Below the pieces are notes generated by a model. The model was not told the origin of the DNA, did no database searches, and saw only the letters and a program-made list of their open reading frames with translations. From Escherichia phage ELT1: 64,000 nucleotides of DNA. Shown piece after piece: positions 22,490 to 33,512 of this stretch; the stretch's first letter is position 1; every line of letters starts with the position of its first letter. Location of the stretch: sequence record MZ892903.1. One strand, 5' to 3'. The translations under genes and the position numbers were made by a program.

Positions 22490-23140
22490 TTATTTTTCCT
22501 TTCTTATGAAGTTTTCTATCATATGTCTATAGCAGATATTAGGATAACCTGCCTTGACAGCTATTTTATTAAATTTTGTGCGCTTAGGTCTATTATTATA
22601 AACCCATAATTCATAAAGCGCATCATAACTATTCCATATTTCCCCTCGCCTAGGATTTGGTAAACCATATCGAGGCGAATTTTTACCGCTAAATCTTCCT
22701 TTTCGGGCTTTACTCATATTAGCCTTGGCTTCATCGGATATAATTTTACCTTTATGAGCTAGACGCATTTTGGCTTTAGTTTCTTCTGGAGTCTTTTTGC
22801 CTTTAATCCATGACGGCTTGCCATATCTAGGATTATTTTCACCCGAGAAAAGAACAGAGTTTTGGATTTTAAGGGTTTCTATTAATCTACTTGTTAATTT
22901 AACACCTTTATTATATCGCATTAAATTTACAGCATAATGCAATCCTCTCACATCTGGATATATTTTAGTTAATAATCTATGAGCTATAAAATGCTCACGC
23001 GCAGTTAACTCAACAAGATTGTTTTTGTCATCTGCTCCTCCCATACATCTAGGAATTATATGATGGCGTTCTTTATATCCATCAAGATGCCGGCATTTAG
23101 CTTTTGTAATTAAAGCCGAGTAAATTTTTTGGTAATTCAC
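22490..23140 (-). CDS. HNH homing endonuclease, 216 aa, GTG start
   Basis: N-terminus MNYQKIY... and HHIIPRCMGGADDKNNLVELTAREHFIAH; free-standing between 56 and dam. Confidence 0.75.
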   Translation of the reverse strand: MNYQKIYSALITKAKCRHLDGYKERHHIIPRCMGGADDKNNLVELTAREHFIAHRLLTKIYPDVRGLHYAVNLMRYNKGVKLTSRLIETLKIQNSVLFSGENNPRYGKPSWIKGKKTPEETKAKMRLAHKGKIISDEAKANMSKARKGRFSGKNSPRYGLPNPRRGEIWNSYDALYELWVYNNRPKRTKFNKIAVKAGYPNICYRHMIENFIRKEK

Positions 23141-28400: not shown

Positions 28401-28763
28401 TTAAAAGAATTTAAACTTTTTCTTTGACCTTTTATTGAATGCATCTTGTAGTTGCATTGTAATACATTTTTCTACATGAGGAGCTAACTCAGCTTTTCTT
28501 TCTTGGTCAAGAACAGCAAAGTCCATTACAACCTTTCCATCAACCCAATCTAATTTTGTCACATACACAATGTGTGTAGAACCATCTTCTAGTTTAATGA
28601 CAATCTCCTGGATAACATTTTCCATGGCAGATTTAATTATCTTAAGAGACTCATTAAAAAGACGTTCTTTTCTTTCTTCTTCCCCCTCCGAAGAGGGGGA
28701 TTCATCGATAATTTCTAGATCTAAGTCTAAATCATCTTTATTCATTAAATTCTTCCATATCAC
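28401..28763 (-). CDS. 40: gp40-like head vertex assembly protein, 120 aa
   Basis: length and position between uvsX and 41. Confidence 0.6.
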   Translation of the reverse strand: MIWKNLMNKDDLDLDLEIIDESPSSEGEEERKERLFNESLKIIKSAMENVIQEIVIKLEDGSTHIVYVTKLDWVDGKVVMDFAVLDQERKAELAPHVEKCITMQLQDAFNKRSKKKFKFF

Positions 28764-29385
28764 TTAACTGCTCGAGGTCAGTTTCTAAATCAGCAGCTGA
28801 TTTACTTTTACTTTCTGGAGATTTAAATTTTTCAACCTTTGAGTTAATCAATTCATCAACTTCAGCTTCAACAATTTCATTACTATCAATAGCACCTAAC
28901 TGATAAGCACGTTTAATAGCATCTCGGAATGGTTGATGCTTAAATAAAGGACCCCAGAATGTAGTGCAGTTGGTATCTTTTGCACGCCAAGATTTTTCTT
29001 CGCGAATCATCTCGCCGGTTTCTTCATCAAGAAATTCACGAGCATACCAGCCATTTTTTGGTTTTACTACAAATCCTAATTCTAGAGCCATATCTAACAA
29101 TCCAGAATAAGGATCGATACCACCGTCAAATTTAACATCAATAAAGAATTTACTTTTTTCTTTAACGGTACGAGATTTTTCTACATTTAGAACAAATTGA
29201 TACCCCTGAAGATCAGAACCATCTTTAATCTGACGCTTACCGATAATGAATACAGTATCAGCCGAATACATTACGCCTGTATTGTGTGTAACGATACCAT
29301 TTTCTAAAACATAATGCTCTACGTCAGCAACAGACAAATCATAGACTTCTTTTTTACCAACAGATTTAACAGATTTAATTTTCAT
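28738..29385 (-). CDS. uvsX: UvsX C-terminal piece: 35-aa C-intein fused to ~180-aa UvsX C-extein
   Basis: MKIKSVKSVGKKEVYDLSVADVEHYVLENGIVTHN then TGVMYSADTVFIIGKRQIKDG... (UvsX C-terminal half); own ATG with AAGG RBS. Confidence 0.85.
   Translation of the reverse strand: MKIKSVKSVGKKEVYDLSVADVEHYVLENGIVTHNTGVMYSADTVFIIGKRQIKDGSDLQGYQFVLNVEKSRTVKEKSKFFIDVKFDGGIDPYSGLLDMALELGFVVKPKNGWYAREFLDEETGEMIREEKSWRAKDTNCTTFWGPLFKHQPFRDAIKRAYQLGAIDSNEIVEAEVDELINSKVEKFKSPESKSKSAADLETDLEQLSDMEEFNE
29281..29385 (-). mobile_element. split intein C-fragment, 35 aa
   Basis: intein blocks F/G VYDLSV...H.Y..NGIVTHN followed by +1 Thr. Confidence 0.8.
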
Positions 29386-29417
29386 ACTTTACCTTGTGTT
29401 TCGTAGTAGCTAGTTTC

Positions 29418-29442
29418 AATATACATATTTCATGAAAGCATA
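29418..29442 (-). promoter_or_regulatory. middle-promoter-like element upstream of UvsX C-piece
   Basis: minus strand ATGCTTTCA (MotA-box-like), 12 nt, then TATATT. Confidence 0.35.
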
Positions 29443-29527
29443 ATCTTGATTGTCGCGTTCATTCCAAATTCTTTTACCATATCTTCGAATGTAGTGCGAA
29501 CCCGTAAAGAACTCGCATTGGAATGCC

Positions 29528-30250
29528 TTAACCACGTGCATCTACTGCATAAGCCCATCCTTTTGTGTTAGCTTTAATTTTGTTGATAATTGTGTTAGGA
29601 TTAATTCCCAGCGCTCTTGCAGCAGGTCTGACGCCCCGGTATTCAATACCGTTTATGATAACGCCTTTTTGTCTAGGATGAGAATGCTTTAATCTTTTCT
29701 TTGCTTTTTCTGATATTTCATTAATTGTTTCTTTGGTGTGTTTCTTACCATAGAACCCATTGTTTTCTCCTGTAATACCTTCTGATATGTGCTTACGGTG
29801 TTCATCAGAAGATTTCACGCCTTTTGTGACGCCAACATACACACCAGATTTAACAAGCGGATGGTTTCTTTCAAGACGAATACATTTACCTGTTATATGA
29901 TGCTTGTATGATGCAAAATCAGCATTAGCATATGAATTATGTCCACAAGCATAATCCAAATTAAAATAATCTGGATTTGTTTTAACGTTTACTTGTTTCT
30001 GATAGAAATTTTCGCGCTCTAGCAGTTTAGCATGTTTAATATCATCATATTGCTCCAGTATTTCAACAGTAACATTATTGATAAAATCATGATATCCGGG
30101 ATATCTCGATGAGCCATAGTACTCGCGACCACGGGCGTCAATAATCTTACCGTCTACATAAGAAGCATTTGTCTTGCTTCCTATGTAGTAATACGGCGGA
30201 GTGCCGTTTTTAATTCTATCGTTGAACACAATTTTATAGACAAAATTCAT
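29528..30250 (-). CDS. free-standing GIY-YIG homing endonuclease (Seg-like), 240 aa
   Basis: N-terminal FVYKIVF...YYYIGSK, NUMOD-like NGFYGKKHT, C-terminal helix-turn-helix-like tail; sits between the two uvsX pieces. Confidence 0.7.
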   Translation of the reverse strand: MNFVYKIVFNDRIKNGTPPYYYIGSKTNASYVDGKIIDARGREYYGSSRYPGYHDFINNVTVEILEQYDDIKHAKLLERENFYQKQVNVKTNPDYFNLDYACGHNSYANADFASYKHHITGKCIRLERNHPLVKSGVYVGVTKGVKSSDEHRKHISEGITGENNGFYGKKHTKETINEISEKAKKRLKHSHPRQKGVIINGIEYRGVRPAARALGINPNTIINKIKANTKGWAYAVDARG

Positions 30251-30253
30251 ATG

Positions 30254-30286
30254 GGTACCTCAAAAATATACATTAGTCCGGTACCC
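30254..30286 (-). promoter_or_regulatory. hairpin sequestering the RBS of the endonuclease gene
   Basis: inverted repeat GGGTACC (30254-30260) / GGTACCC (30280-30286); 3' arm covers GAGG just upstream of ATG 30248-30250. Confidence 0.45.
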
Positions 30287-30293
30287 ATATTTA

Positions 30294-31223
30294 TTACCTT
30301 ACAACACAATCCATTCCAGCTACTAAATCTTTAGCTTCAACCCAAGTTGGAATGTCTTTAACCATTACCAGGAACTTGTGGGTATCTGAAGTAGTTACTT
30401 TATAACCGTCTTCGAATTCAATTTCGAAACATTCAGGAGTACCTTCAGCCAGAGTTTCTGGGTCCCAAACATAAGTTACTTCATTATCACCGACCATGGT
30501 TTTAACACGTTCACCTGGACGAATATCTTCAACTGCTTTAGTAGAACCATCGGACATCTGGATTTTAGTACCAGCAATAACACAACCACCTGTCATCACG
30601 GTTTTACTAAACAGTTCAATTGTTTCAATTGTATGGTTAACCGCAACACACGGAATGTTTTTAATACTAAAATAAGGAGTAACAATACGGAATAATGACT
30701 TCAGTGATTTAGCACGAGTCATATCTGCCACAGATTTTTCATTCAAGGCATCTTCCGTTTCTTTCTTAGAAGCCATATTACCAATTGAGTCAATGAATAC
30801 AATAACTTTTTCACCACGCTCAATAGCTTCAAGCTGATTCACCATATCAATTTTCAGCTGTTCAACTGACTGAATTGGTGTATGAATTACTCGTTCCGGG
30901 TCAACTCCCATGGATCGCAAATAAGCTGGAGTAATACCAAATTCGCTATCATAGAATAGACAAACCGCGTCAGGATATTTGTTCAAATACGCCGCAACCA
31001 TAGTCAAAGACATATTTGATTTAAAGTGTTTAGAAGGACCTGCAAAAATGGTTAAACCAGACTGCATACCACCATCAATCGCACCAGAAATAGCGATATT
31101 AAGCATTGGGATTTTTGTACGGATTACATCCTTTTCATTAAAGAATTTAGATGTAGTCAGTTCAGCAGTCATTTTAGAAGTGGAAGCTTTAATTAAACGG
31201 GATTTTAAATCTGCAATAGACAT
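30294..31223 (-). CDS. uvsX: UvsX N-terminal piece: ~213-aa N-extein fused to 96-aa N-intein
   Basis: MSIADLKSRLIKAS..., Walker A GPSKHFKS, ...KTVMTGG then CVIAGTKIQ...TTSDTHKF...MDCVVR-stop. Confidence 0.85.
   Translation of the reverse strand: MSIADLKSRLIKASTSKMTAELTTSKFFNEKDVIRTKIPMLNIAISGAIDGGMQSGLTIFAGPSKHFKSNMSLTMVAAYLNKYPDAVCLFYDSEFGITPAYLRSMGVDPERVIHTPIQSVEQLKIDMVNQLEAIERGEKVIVFIDSIGNMASKKETEDALNEKSVADMTRAKSLKSLFRIVTPYFSIKNIPCVAVNHTIETIELFSKTVMTGGCVIAGTKIQMSDGSTKAVEDIRPGERVKTMVGDNEVTYVWDPETLAEGTPECFEIEFEDGYKVTTSDTHKFLVMVKDIPTWVEAKDLVAGMDCVVR
30297..30584 (-). mobile_element. split intein N-fragment, 96 aa
   Basis: intein block A CVIAGTKI and block B TTSDTHKFLV; ends at in-frame TAA. 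Confidence 0.8.
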
Positions 31224-31300: not shown

Positions 31301-32143
31301 TTAATCAACTGCTATTGGATGAATAGCATTAAACTTATGAAATGCTTCTGATTTTTCTTTACGCGAAACACACATGCGAAGAACCTTTAGTGGTTCATCT
31401 TCTTCACCCAACGATTTTCGTTTTTCAATATTTGAAGTTTTCCAACGAGCTTGCTCTGGAAACTCTCTATTGATTTGCTCAAGCGCTCTATTATGTTTAG
31501 AATTACTACGAATTGAACTACATCCACCGGGAGCGTGTGATTTTCCAGATACAACTAGATATTTGAACAAGGCCAAATGCGGATAACCTTGATTAATTAA
31601 ATTGAGAAATGCATACATATCTTCGCATAAATCAATTTTTCCATACCCAATTTGTTCTGTCGTAAGTTTTCCGAGGTCATACCATGTATTCGTGAATCCA
31701 TATGAGTTTTCACGATAATTACCCCAAGATGAAGTAATTTTAAAAATTGGTAGACGAGCATGGCCATGATAATACCCACAATCCATGGCATCTTCAACGT
31801 ATTGAATCAATTCATAGAACTGTTCACGAGTTAATTGATTAATTTTATCTACACGCCGTTTATCGTCTCTCTTTCGTATTGAACTCATACGAATAGTAGT
31901 ATCATCATCAATCATCCAGATTCGTTGACCTGCATACATATCAGTAATTGCTTTACGAGTACCGGCAATTCCATTAACATCATCAGGAATAGTTACAATT
32001 TTAGCTCTAGACCCATAAGCATCATAATAAGCTTTTTCTTCGTGTTCACGCACTACAATATGGGGTTCATAATCAGTCGGAAACATATTAAGGGCAGAAA
32101 CTGCCCCTACACGCTGATAACTTGGAATTACGAATTGAATCAT
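31301..32143 (-). CDS. putative glycosyltransferase (GT-A-like, DxD), 280 aa, in the position of T4 b-gt
   Basis: WMIDDD motif; unlike the recalled 351-aa T4 beta-glucosyltransferase. Confidence 0.55.
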   Translation of the reverse strand: MIQFVIPSYQRVGAVSALNMFPTDYEPHIVVREHEEKAYYDAYGSRAKIVTIPDDVNGIAGTRKAITDMYAGQRIWMIDDDTTIRMSSIRKRDDKRRVDKINQLTREQFYELIQYVEDAMDCGYYHGHARLPIFKITSSWGNYRENSYGFTNTWYDLGKLTTEQIGYGKIDLCEDMYAFLNLINQGYPHLALFKYLVVSGKSHAPGGCSSIRSNSKHNRALEQINREFPEQARWKTSNIEKRKSLGEEDEPLKVLRMCVSRKEKSEAFHKFNAIHPIAVD

Positions 32144-32781
32144 TTAAGTGCCTTACATTTGTCAAAATGGTATCTTGTCATATTTGGCCCACGTCCTTTT
32201 AGTCCGCAATGCGGACATATTTTTTCTATCAAATTATGAGGTTTTCCTTTACGATTTTTAGACATCGTTTCTTTAATTATTTTAGCTTTTTCTACGCCAA
32301 AAATTTCTTCATAAGTTTTACCAGAATTTTCCTTGGCTCGATTTATAATTCCATATGCCTGCTCATTTTTACCATACATTGGATTACCTTCGCCTTTCAT
32401 TCTTTTAGAATGATCAGGACGCTTGATTCCACGAAAGGCATTTCCGCACTTATATCTTTCTTCTGGAGATAGTTTTTTACCGTACATTCCATTTAATTTG
32501 CCTGGAAAACTTCCTCCCCATGCTTCATTCTTTAAATTATATGAATCCGGACAATTAGCAGCATCTAAACAAGTTAAAATAATTTCTTCAACCTGTCTAA
32601 ACATTGGTCCTTCATATAATATTTCTTTATTAAAGGATTTTATTCCATATTTCTTTTTAGCATGTTGCCAAACTACACCCGAACCATCATAATTCGGGTT
32701 GTGACCATCATGACTTCCTATATACCACTTTTTAGTTTTAGGATGTTTATACTTATAAACATGTGGCACATTTACTTCCAT
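32140..32781 (-). CDS. GIY-YIG homing endonuclease (Seg-like), 213 aa
   Basis: HVYKYKHPKTKKWYIGS, NUMOD-like NGMYGKK and NPMYGKN, C-terminal CPHCG zinc finger. Confidence 0.65.
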   Translation of the reverse strand: MEVNVPHVYKYKHPKTKKWYIGSHDGHNPNYDGSGVVWQHAKKKYGIKSFNKEILYEGPMFRQVEEIILTCLDAANCPDSYNLKNEAWGGSFPGKLNGMYGKKLSPEERYKCGNAFRGIKRPDHSKRMKGEGNPMYGKNEQAYGIINRAKENSGKTYEEIFGVEKAKIIKETMSKNRKGKPHNLIEKICPHCGLKGRGPNMTRYHFDKCKALK

Positions 32782-33512
32782 TTTCCAGTATAATCCTTTT
32801 TAGCAATATGAGTCTCACCGGTGTTCCACCAATGGTCAACTAAATAAAACTGATTTTCGTACACATGAAGACTTCCAACGTTCCATATAATAGAACCTGC
32901 TTTATATTGCCGCGATGGGTCGCCTGCATTCAAATCAGATACTAATTTATCTAGTACGTATTTTTGCCAAGCATAATCATTACGATAGCCTGCCCAGCAA
33001 TCATTGCTTCTCATGCTAACAACCGCATTGACTTTCTTATCACGAATCAGGTACTGTACTGTATTAGTACACATGAAATCTGACATACCATCTTTATTGT
33101 AGTCAAATTGCATGGATGGACGAGTATAAATCATGATACCACGTCGAGAATCAGGATTTTGACCAAGTTCAGCTAAACACATATCATACTGGGCATAGTT
33201 ATCTTCTGACCAGATAGCCCAACCATAATTCGAGTTAATTTCACCTTTAGAAGATGCTACCTGCTGCCAAATCTTCGGTGTTTCACCTGGAATATCTTTA
33301 ACAAACAGACTTTGAGACTTATACCATTCAAGTTCACGCTGAATGTATTCATCATTAAGAGCGCCAAAAATAAACGGTTCATCTGCTACAAATGATGCGC
33401 CAATAATTTCAATAGTTTTAACGCCAGTTTTATCAACTACGAAATCTTTTTCCTTTAATGCAAGCCCCAAATGAAGACGGATTTCTTCAACTGTCATAGA
33501 GTCACTAATCAT
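32772..33512 (-). CDS. 42: dCMP hydroxymethylase, 246 aa
   Basis: matches recalled T4 gp42. Confidence 0.95.
   Translation of the reverse strand: MISDSMTVEEIRLHLGLALKEKDFVVDKTGVKTIEIIGASFVADEPFIFGALNDEYIQRELEWYKSQSLFVKDIPGETPKIWQQVASSKGEINSNYGWAIWSEDNYAQYDMCLAELGQNPDSRRGIMIYTRPSMQFDYNKDGMSDFMCTNTVQYLIRDKKVNAVVSMRSNDCWAGYRNDYAWQKYVLDKLVSDLNAGDPSRQYKAGSIIWNVGSLHVYENQFYLVDHWWNTGETHIAKKDYTGKWK

Follow-up and report, generated by a model that had tools for sequence, protein, structure and literature searches.

Between gene 42 and the neighbouring glucosyltransferase gene, Escherichia phage ELT1 carries an open reading frame (ORF) that most of its relatives do not have at this position. What does this ORF encode, and how did it come to be there? 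The stretch of DNA analysed, hereafter the window, comprises 64,000 nucleotides (nt) of this T2/T6-like Tequatrovirus (MZ892903.1). A first-pass annotation had placed a 213-amino-acid (aa) ORF at positions 32140-32781 and had called it a free-standing Seg-like GIY-YIG endonuclease gene; the list of ORFs contains exactly this frame, on the minus strand with an ATG start, and both domain searches (PHROG 314) and the predicted fold (Foldseek match to 1MK0) agree with the assignment. We consider it likely that the ORF is an intact and probably active free-standing Seg-type GIY-YIG homing endonuclease gene that homes into the 3' region of gene 42 with co-conversion. The features of the locus are collected in Table 1.

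Protein family and predicted fold

PHROG 314 ('homing endonuclease') matches the 213-aa protein over its whole length with an E-value of 2.3e-31, and a database search with the protein returned 70 homologues; judged by these matches, the ORF and its motifs are far beyond chance. A family alignment, termed A1, was made from 36 of the homologues, 13 of which match the Pfam family SegE_GIY-YIG (PF19835) and six of which match GIY-YIG (PF01541). The TIGR01453 model ('group I intron endonuclease') is found on the ELT1 protein below threshold (E 3e-5; 24 bits versus a cut-off of 56). When the A1 profile was compared with the sequences of the Protein Data Bank (PDB), the catalytic domain of I-TevI was the best match, at an E-value of 0.08; a phmmer search of the PDB sequences with the single protein gave a chance match only, the family profile being required.

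The AlphaFold2 (AF2) model built on A1 has a predicted local distance difference test (pLDDT) score of 87.8. Its top Foldseek match is I-TevI (1MK0; E 1.9e-3, Foldseek probability 1.00, template modelling (TM) score 0.67 on the target, 100 aligned columns), and the fold of the I-TevI catalytic domain, a three-stranded sheet with flanking helices, is present in the model as strands 7-12, 19-24 and 51-57 and helices 36-45 and 61-72. A comparison with BFVD, which holds predicted structures of viral proteins, gave 193 matches; among the 50 best, nearly every named one is a Seg-like or intron endonuclease. Among the T4 paralogues, the nearest is SegC, whose gene lies between 5.1 and 5.4 (35% identity over aa 7-138; BLASTP E 2e-14). 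These results support the identification of the protein as a Seg-type GIY-YIG homing endonuclease.

Catalytic domain and DNA-binding region

The GIY-YIG-like motif quoted in the first-pass annotation, HVYKYKHPKTKKWYIGS, corresponds to residues 7-23 and shows the GIY-N10-YIG spacing: H7-V8-Y9 is followed by a 10-residue spacer and then by Y20-I21-G22, both Tyr residues being conserved. Across the catalytic domain (approximately aa 1-92), the consensus of A1 reads G-[YF]-V-Y-x10-Y-I-G-S-H ... Y-x-G-S-G ... K-K-Y-G ... E-E-x-I-L ... S-Y-N-L. The conserved residues are Y9 (34 of 34 aligned), Y20 and G22 (36/36 each), Y31-x-G33-S34-G35 (Y31 in 35/36, G33 in 36/36), K44 (33/36), E65 (31/36) and Y81-N82 (N82 in 34/36), and the ELT1 copy possesses Y9, Y20, G22, Y31, G33, K44, E65 and N82. 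The Gly of 'GIY' is replaced in ELT1, where P6-H7-V8-Y9 stands against G-Y-V-Y in the family. The candidate metal-binding Glu, equivalent to E75 of I-TevI, is E65 on helix 61-72, with E66 (24/36) adjacent to it and a register that is uncertain by one to two residues, while Y81-N82 aligns with Y89-N90 of I-TevI in the profile alignment.

The repeats that had been described as NUMOD-like are two N[GP]MYG cores, NGMYG at residue 97 and NPMYG at residue 133. Pfam NUMOD3 is found below threshold on the ELT1 protein (E 0.0027; 18 bits versus a cut-off of 20.4) and at E <= 0.01 in 22 of the 36 A1 members, with a best value of 4.5e-10. A helical segment follows in the AF2 model (residues 140-177), and the protein ends in the zinc finger that the first-pass annotation had seen, C189-x2-C192-x12-H205-x3-C209, which is modelled as two short strands and a helix. 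This CCHC module, for which no Pfam family was matched, is kept in 33 of the 36 sequences; the remaining three (P0035, P0037 and P0040) join the catalytic domain to another C-terminal domain. P0058 joins the NUMOD3/zinc-finger tail of the family to a canonical GIY-YIG domain that has the Arg helix and matches PF01541. Furthermore, the 25-aa finger module CPHCG..G.GPNMTRYHFDKC alone recurs in endonuclease genes from unrelated phages, identity being highest in Erwinia phage Kaldavass (76%), and a longer match, covering residues 115-205, lies in a gene of phage Bp7 that is annotated as HNH. Such recurrence of the finger in other endonuclease genes is the usual modular shuffling. The protein would, on this evidence, consist of a SegC/SegE-like catalytic variant at the N-terminus followed by two NUMOD3 helices, the helical segment and the CCHC finger, these C-terminal parts forming a predicted DNA-binding module.

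A precise insertion in a subset of phages

Comparison with phages that lack the gene reveals an insertion of 632 bp, whose boundary is ambiguous by 2 nt (AA). With the insertion point marked by a slash, the empty site of T2 and T4_ev151 reads ...TGGAA/ATGATTC, and the occupied site reads ...TGGAA/GTAAATG...CACTTAA/ATGATTC. Gene 42 of T2 and T4_ev151 ends in ...GAG TGG AAA TGA and overlaps the ATG of gt; in carriers, the corresponding DNA is ...AAA TGG AA/G TAA ATG TGC ... CAC TTA A/AT GAT TC. Both overlaps claimed in the first-pass annotation are borne out by the sequence: the start of the endonuclease gene shares 10 nt with gene 42, and its stop overlaps the glucosyltransferase ATG as ATGA. 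The latter stop/start is the same overlap as that between gene 42 and gt in the empty allele.

Megablast located the endonuclease ORF in 77 phage records, and the copy in 70 of these reaches 99% identity or more. The gene 42-gt interval was recovered from 506 Tequatrovirus records, only the 77 carriers having the full 2212 bp; in most non-carrier records the interval measures 1580 bp and is, therefore, 632 bp shorter. Gene 42 and gt are adjacent in approximately 430 records, with the ATGA overlap and no insert. GenBank labels for the gene range from 'hypothetical protein', 'homing endonuclease' and 'putative endonuclease segE' to 'similar to T4 segC', the last of these in the ACG-C40 record.

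Population signature of apparent recent spread

Diversity in gene 42 and gt was compared, on a coordinate basis, between 10 carriers and 9 non-carriers. Nucleotide diversity (pi) of the insert is 0.0029 among the carriers. For gt, values per 100-nt bin are 0.013-0.074 in carriers and 0.009-0.068 in non-carriers, with a between-group divergence (dxy) of 0.016-0.065; for gene 42 upstream of position -300, the respective values are 0.021-0.070, 0.023-0.055 and 0.023-0.059. The last 300 nt of gene 42 stand apart, with a pi of 0.006-0.020 in carriers and 0.033-0.094 in non-carriers, and a dxy of 0.084-0.23. Carriers are, in other words, as diverse as non-carriers and undifferentiated from them (pi = dxy) throughout gt, its initial 100 nt included, and over the 5' ~440 nt of gene 42, the flanks of the insert differing by 2-7% among the sampled phages, while at the end of gene 42 they are near-uniform and strongly differentiated from non-carriers. 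A near-invariant insert with one flank that has been dragged through otherwise unrelated backgrounds fits repeated break-induced conversion with a cut on the gene 42 side, and this pattern argues against vertical inheritance with repeated loss. The gene has, it appears, spread in recent times through phages whose remaining sequence is divergent.

Repeated loss, in which the gene is ancestral at this position and its patchy distribution reflects deletions, does account for the relatives of 65-71% identity found at the equivalent site in Yersinia phage MHG19, Klebsiella phage Roth78 and a metagenomic T4-like contig, which imply an old association with gene 42. It is difficult to reconcile, however, with the low diversity of the insert in the face of such divergent flanks, in which carriers are no closer to one another than non-carriers are. 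Furthermore, all nine empty alleles examined have one and the same precise junction that keeps the ATGA, an unlikely product of many independent deletions, and we regard an ancestral gene as highly improbable.

The haplotype that travels with the endonuclease gene covers the last ~245 nt of gene 42 and is here taken as a putative co-conversion tract, in or at the edge of which the cleavage site would lie. Nine substitutions between -31 and -2 from the end of gene 42 are fixed between carriers and non-carriers; these are the sole fixed differences in gene 42 and gt, with none in gt, and they alter the gp42 tail from ..IVKKDYNGEWK to ..IAKKDYTGKWK. Compared with T2, 12 of the 13 amino acid differences in gp42 fall within aa 161-246. 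Two patches of the tract are nearer to gene 42 of MHG19, Roth78 and the L006 locus than to that of T2, as would be expected had they arrived along with the endonuclease gene.

On its left, the linked tract borders on the codons for the conserved MRSND...RND motif, and codons 168-176 (MRSND and CWAGY, the latter being VVFGF in T2) form a speculative candidate target. CWAGY was considered as a carrier-specific mark and rejected, as it is the usual sequence of many lineages and also occurs in T4_ev151; it marks the edge of the imported tract. A cut in the CWAGY/MRSND region is, for this reason, put forward as a hypothesis only. The gp42 variant HVYENQF (versus HVYSRHF) was likewise discarded as a mark of immunity: the carrier L006 has SRH, and the non-carrier T4_ev151 has ENQ.

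T4_ev151 (locus L002; gene 42 at 1501-2241) has no endonuclease gene, yet it exhibits the carrier haplotype (CWAGY, DPSRQ, ENQ) until position -32, followed by the non-carrier tail. Either this phage is a recombinant and has lost the gene, or it represents the background into which the gene first came. Only the junction-proximal bases, then, track the insert perfectly, and all nine fixed differences lie within 31 nt of the insertion point; for I-TevI, moreover, cleavage takes place 23-25 nt upstream of the insertion site, to which the enzyme binds (PMC2988022). These points would suit an enzyme that recognises the uninterrupted gene 42/gt junction and cuts within ~25 bp of it rather than 200-250 nt upstream, carriers being immune by virtue of a split site and the nine changed bases. 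We consider such a junction site rather unlikely: the downstream neighbour varies across the family, so a site that spans the junction cannot be conserved, the characterised free-standing phage endonucleases cut hundreds of bp from their own genes (PMC2988022), and the reduced diversity reaches ~250 nt rather than 30 nt.

Position of the family beside thymidylate-synthase-family genes

The gene upstream of relatives of the endonuclease was compared at 80 IMG/VR loci. Full-length relatives with at least 47% identity have a same-strand ORF of the thymidylate-synthase family, to which gene 42 belongs, directly upstream at 22 of 22 loci, with gaps of -10 to 76 bp and, in two loci, of 229 bp. At 25-36% identity such a gene is directly upstream in only one of 25 loci (L047), and at four loci with partial matches of 40-47% identity no thymidylate-synthase-family gene was found directly upstream. 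Six contigs that were looked up singly (45-71% identity), together with the Roth78 copy, have the endonuclease gene directly 3' of a gene of the Thymidylat_synt family. Their downstream neighbours differ completely and include glycosyltransferases, a helicase, an inosine monophosphate dehydrogenase (IMPDH)-like gene and genes without known function. That the clade keeps one address points to a target inside the thymidylate-synthase-family gene.

One relative with 41% identity is arranged differently. At locus L042 (2998-4290), a truncated endonuclease-like sequence without the zinc finger precedes a thymidylate-synthase-family gene and shares one open frame with it; the two may be fused, or a copy on the opposite flank of the target gene may have decayed.

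Points against an active homing endonuclease

Several observations weigh against the reading of the ORF as an active endonuclease that homes into gene 42. The diversity comparison covers only 19 genomes, and most of the gene 42 haplotype is not strictly tied to the insert, because T4_ev151 carries it. On the 213-aa protein itself, neither PF01541 (GIY-YIG) nor PF19835 (SegE_GIY-YIG) is matched at E <= 1, and the profile match to I-TevI is marginal. The catalytic Arg of I-TevI, R27, has no alignable counterpart in the profile alignment, where the R27 helix is an insertion relative to the family; correspondingly, the AF2 model has just one helix between strands 2 and 3. The ribosome-binding site of the endonuclease gene is weak. 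Frameshifted or split copies, with 1-nt indels or in two pieces, occur in Shinka (L012 3732-4352), REP2/REP3, PYps5T and Roth78 (L004 4001-4653), and the element is, therefore, dispensable and can decay. Finally, nuclease activity, like the location of the cut, is something that we infer.

Among these points, the Arg residue deserves closer attention, as Arg, Glu and Asn were the catalytic residues that the first-pass annotation had expected in an alignment. Glu (E65) and Asn (N82) are present, and the Arg is not. K44, R62 or the Y31-GSG loop may take its place. T4 SegC is likewise without the Arg helix (H..DDGY.GSG..KKYG) and appears among the active endonucleases in Table 1 of PMC2988022. 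Since SegC shares this architecture and is active, the missing Arg does not refute the endonuclease reading, and we treat it as a trait of this Seg sub-type and not as a sign of inactivity; a paper on the phylogenomics of GIY-YIG proteins has nothing on the Arg question for Seg proteins. Decaying copies are expected in the life cycle of such elements.

Although the absent Arg counterpart, the undetected Pfam GIY-YIG domain and the replaced Gly of the first motif would also suit a catalytically dead or domesticated DNA-binding remnant, such as a regulator acting on the gene 42-gt operon, spread by ordinary recombination or selection, the active SegC has the same Arg-less architecture, and homologues down to ~30% identity keep both Tyr, the Glu and the Asn, which is not required of a dead domain. 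An insert that is ten times less diverse than its flanks, with one-sided linkage, is what break-driven drive predicts, and the frameshifted copies imply that the host has no strong need for the protein. A dead remnant seems, on balance, improbable.

Gene arrangement and expression

Table 1. Coordinates of the endonuclease gene, its neighbours and associated features in the ELT1 window.
Feature	Position	Strand	Basis
Seg-type GIY-YIG homing endonuclease gene, free-standing, 213 aa, ATG start	32140..32781	-	ORF list, PHROG 314, homologues, AF2 model
Catalytic GIY-YIG domain, ~aa 1-92	32506..32781	-	Conservation counts, AF2 elements, 1MK0 match, SegC BLASTP
Linker/DNA-binding region with NUMOD3 cores NGMYG (aa 97) and NPMYG (aa 133)	32362..32502	-	Pfam NUMOD3, motif positions
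C-terminal CCHC zinc-finger-like module (C189, C192, H205, C209)	32155..32217	-	Conservation, AF2 model
632-bp insertion relative to phages without the gene (boundary ambiguous by 2 nt)	32144..32775	-	Empty-site comparison
Last ~245 nt of gene 42: haplotype travelling with the endonuclease gene, putative co-conversion tract	32772..33016	-	pi versus dxy
Nine fixed carrier/non-carrier substitutions, -31 to -2 from the end of gene 42	32773..32802	-	10 versus 9 genomes
Gene 42 codons 168-176 (MRSND and CWAGY; VVFGF in T2), left edge of the linked haplotype	32985..33011	-	Candidate target, speculative
Endonuclease start codon embedded in the final gene 42 codons, 10-nt overlap (AAA ATG GAA GTA A)	32772..32781	-	Sequence
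ATGA overlap: endonuclease TGA (32142-32140) and gt ATG (32143-32141)	32140..32143	-	Sequence
Gene 42 (dCMP hydroxymethylase of the thymidylate-synthase family), host gene upstream of the insert and probable target	32772..33512	-	Pfam Thymidylat_synt E 1.5e-14; PHROG 160
gt (beta-glucosyl-HMC-alpha-glucosyltransferase, T2/T6 type, 280 aa), downstream neighbour, unlinked to the insert	31301..32143	-	PHROG 842 E 6e-88; Pfam TAGT

HMC, hydroxymethylcytosine.

The minus strand inside the endonuclease ORF contains neither a sigma-70-like site nor a TATAAATA late promoter, and no terminator specific to the ORF was found, the terminator-like hairpins lying on the opposite strand or inside gt. In T4, seven of the 12 free-standing endonuclease genes are promoter-less cassettes, and segC, segF, mobA and mobC overlap their upstream ORFs by 11-24 bp (PMC2988022). 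The ELT1 gene fits this pattern of promoter-less, overlapping cassettes, and its translation probably starts by coupling or re-initiation. The endonuclease ATG within gene 42 is created jointly by the cassette and by a Glu-to-Lys substitution in the tail of gp42; the empty allele of the T2 type is without this ATG because it has GAG TGG. The start ATG inside the 'GKW/GEW' codons is kept in the relatives from MHG19, L006 and Roth78. A start-masking RNA hairpin, as in mobE and I-TevI, was considered and rejected, the fold of 32730-32830 on the minus strand being no better than that of shuffled sequences (z -0.42).

Within the 5' end of gt lies a GC-rich hairpin of 9 bp, TAGGGGCAGTTTCTGCCCTTA (32089-32109, minus strand), which is kept in carriers and non-carriers. 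A terminator feature is annotated in Yersinia phage fPS-65 somewhere within the matched gene 42-gt interval.

Proposed homing mechanism

As a promoter-less cassette, the gene would share a transcript with gene 42, and its stop codon would re-create the ATGA coupling for gt. When a carrier and a relative without the gene infect one cell together, the enzyme would cleave the genome of the latter within or close to the last third of gene 42, no more than ~250 nt from the insertion point. Repair of the double-strand break on the carrier template would then transfer the endonuclease gene along with the adjoining 3' end of gene 42. Such a process would amount to the 'intronless homing' with localised marker exclusion that is described for SegF and SegG.

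The genes of SegF and SegG adjoin genes 56 and 32 of T4; these enzymes cut inside the adjoining genes at a distance, and the interval is obligatorily co-converted (PMC2988022). A one-sided tract of ~250 nt is what this mechanism leaves. The host genes and the sequences differ between SegF or SegG and the ELT1 protein, for which cleavage and marker exclusion are predicted.

Relation to other phage endonucleases

T4 SegC resembles the ELT1 protein most closely in its catalytic variant (Y-x10-YIG, H..DGY.GSG, KKYG and no Arg helix), which is followed by NUMOD3-type repeats, and its gene is also a promoter-less cassette, the start of which overlaps the upstream ORF by 20 bp. In contrast, segC occupies another locus and thus has another presumed target, and the C-terminal halves are unrelated past NUMOD3, the ELT1 protein ending in a CCHC finger. 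At 35% identity, SegC is not an orthologue of the ELT1 protein.

I-TevI and I-BmoI have in common with the ELT1 protein the fold, the combination of a catalytic domain with an extended DNA-binding region that includes a zinc finger, and the association with a thymidylate-synthase-family gene. These enzymes are, however, intron-encoded and possess the Arg27 helix, a terminal helix-turn-helix and a zinc finger in the linker, whereas the ELT1 gene lies in no intron and its product has no Arg helix, carries its finger at the C-terminus and is marginally similar to them (E 0.08).

With T4 SegA, the ELT1 protein shares its enzyme class and the uvsX-glycosyltransferase-42 neighbourhood. The segA gene is located between uvsX and beta-gt and its product cuts uvsX, and T4 has no endonuclease gene between 42 and beta-gt (PMC2988022, Table 1 therein). 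The two genes thus lie on opposite sides of the glycosyltransferase gene, segA with a uvsX target and the ELT1 gene, between gt and 42, with linkage to gene 42.

The proposal of the first-pass annotation that the uvsX-42 interval is a hotspot of endonuclease genes holds, with three distinct insertion sites within ~3 kb: the 42/gt site of the ELT1 gene, the gt/uvsX site of segA and of a gene of Salmonella phage Manna, and the GIY-YIG ORF between the intein-bearing uvsX halves of this window. Manna has a copy of the gene studied here and, in addition, the annotated homing endonuclease gene (L013 5217-5882) on the uvsX side of the glycosyltransferase gene, so that in this phage two endonuclease genes flank one glycosyltransferase gene.

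The uvsX gene of the window is split into two ORFs (28738-31223, minus strand). The N-terminal part (30294-31223) ends in a Hint/intein N-terminal segment, and the C-terminal part (28738-29385) begins with an intein C-terminal segment (...VTHN) that is followed by the UvsX C-domain. Between them lies a free-standing GIY-YIG/NUMOD ORF of 240 aa (29528-30250), an arrangement that resembles a 'fractured gene' or split intein. The split-uvsX DNA occurs in only about eight phage records, the HY03 sequence being 100% identical. Elsewhere in the window, a third endonuclease-like ORF of 216 aa (22490-23140, minus strand) matches PHROG 655 ('homing endonuclease') at E 2e-60; it combines an HNH-type N-terminus with a NUMOD3-like region that it has in common with the ELT1 Seg family.

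Significance

Literature searches returned no described endonuclease gene next to gene 42. The ELT1 gene is an uncharacterised and previously undescribed member of a known Seg kind and, as such, an ordinary kind of selfish element. It lies outside the set of 15 T4 endonucleases and, as the third insertion site in the uvsX-glycosyltransferase-42 interval, documents this interval as a hotspot. Two points alone go beyond the routine: the fidelity of the family to thymidylate-synthase-family genes, and the signature of one-sided co-conversion. The latter is an unusually clean signature of intronless homing in a natural population, and it predicts the position of the cut and the gp42 variants that are dragged along. 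The gene may also matter in the recombination and engineering of T2-like therapeutic phages, since non-random inheritance would be predicted for markers close to gene 42.

The single address that the clade keeps at 45-71% identity, amid unrelated neighbourhoods, suggests long-term fidelity to a target in a gene of nucleotide metabolism and could be used in finding the recognition site. Taken together, the data allow a broader reading, which we offer tentatively, as possible rather than probable. According to this reading, the ELT1 protein would belong to an old, undescribed Seg lineage that has specialised on dCMP hydroxymethylase and thymidylate synthase genes across phage groups, always sitting just 3' of them and cutting at the MRSND/RND codons ~240 nt upstream, with SegC-like catalysis that dispenses with the canonical Arg. 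Such a lineage would stand beside the intron enzymes I-TevI and I-BmoI as their free-standing counterpart, and it would be a candidate for the role of a 'pre-adapted' partner in collaborative homing.

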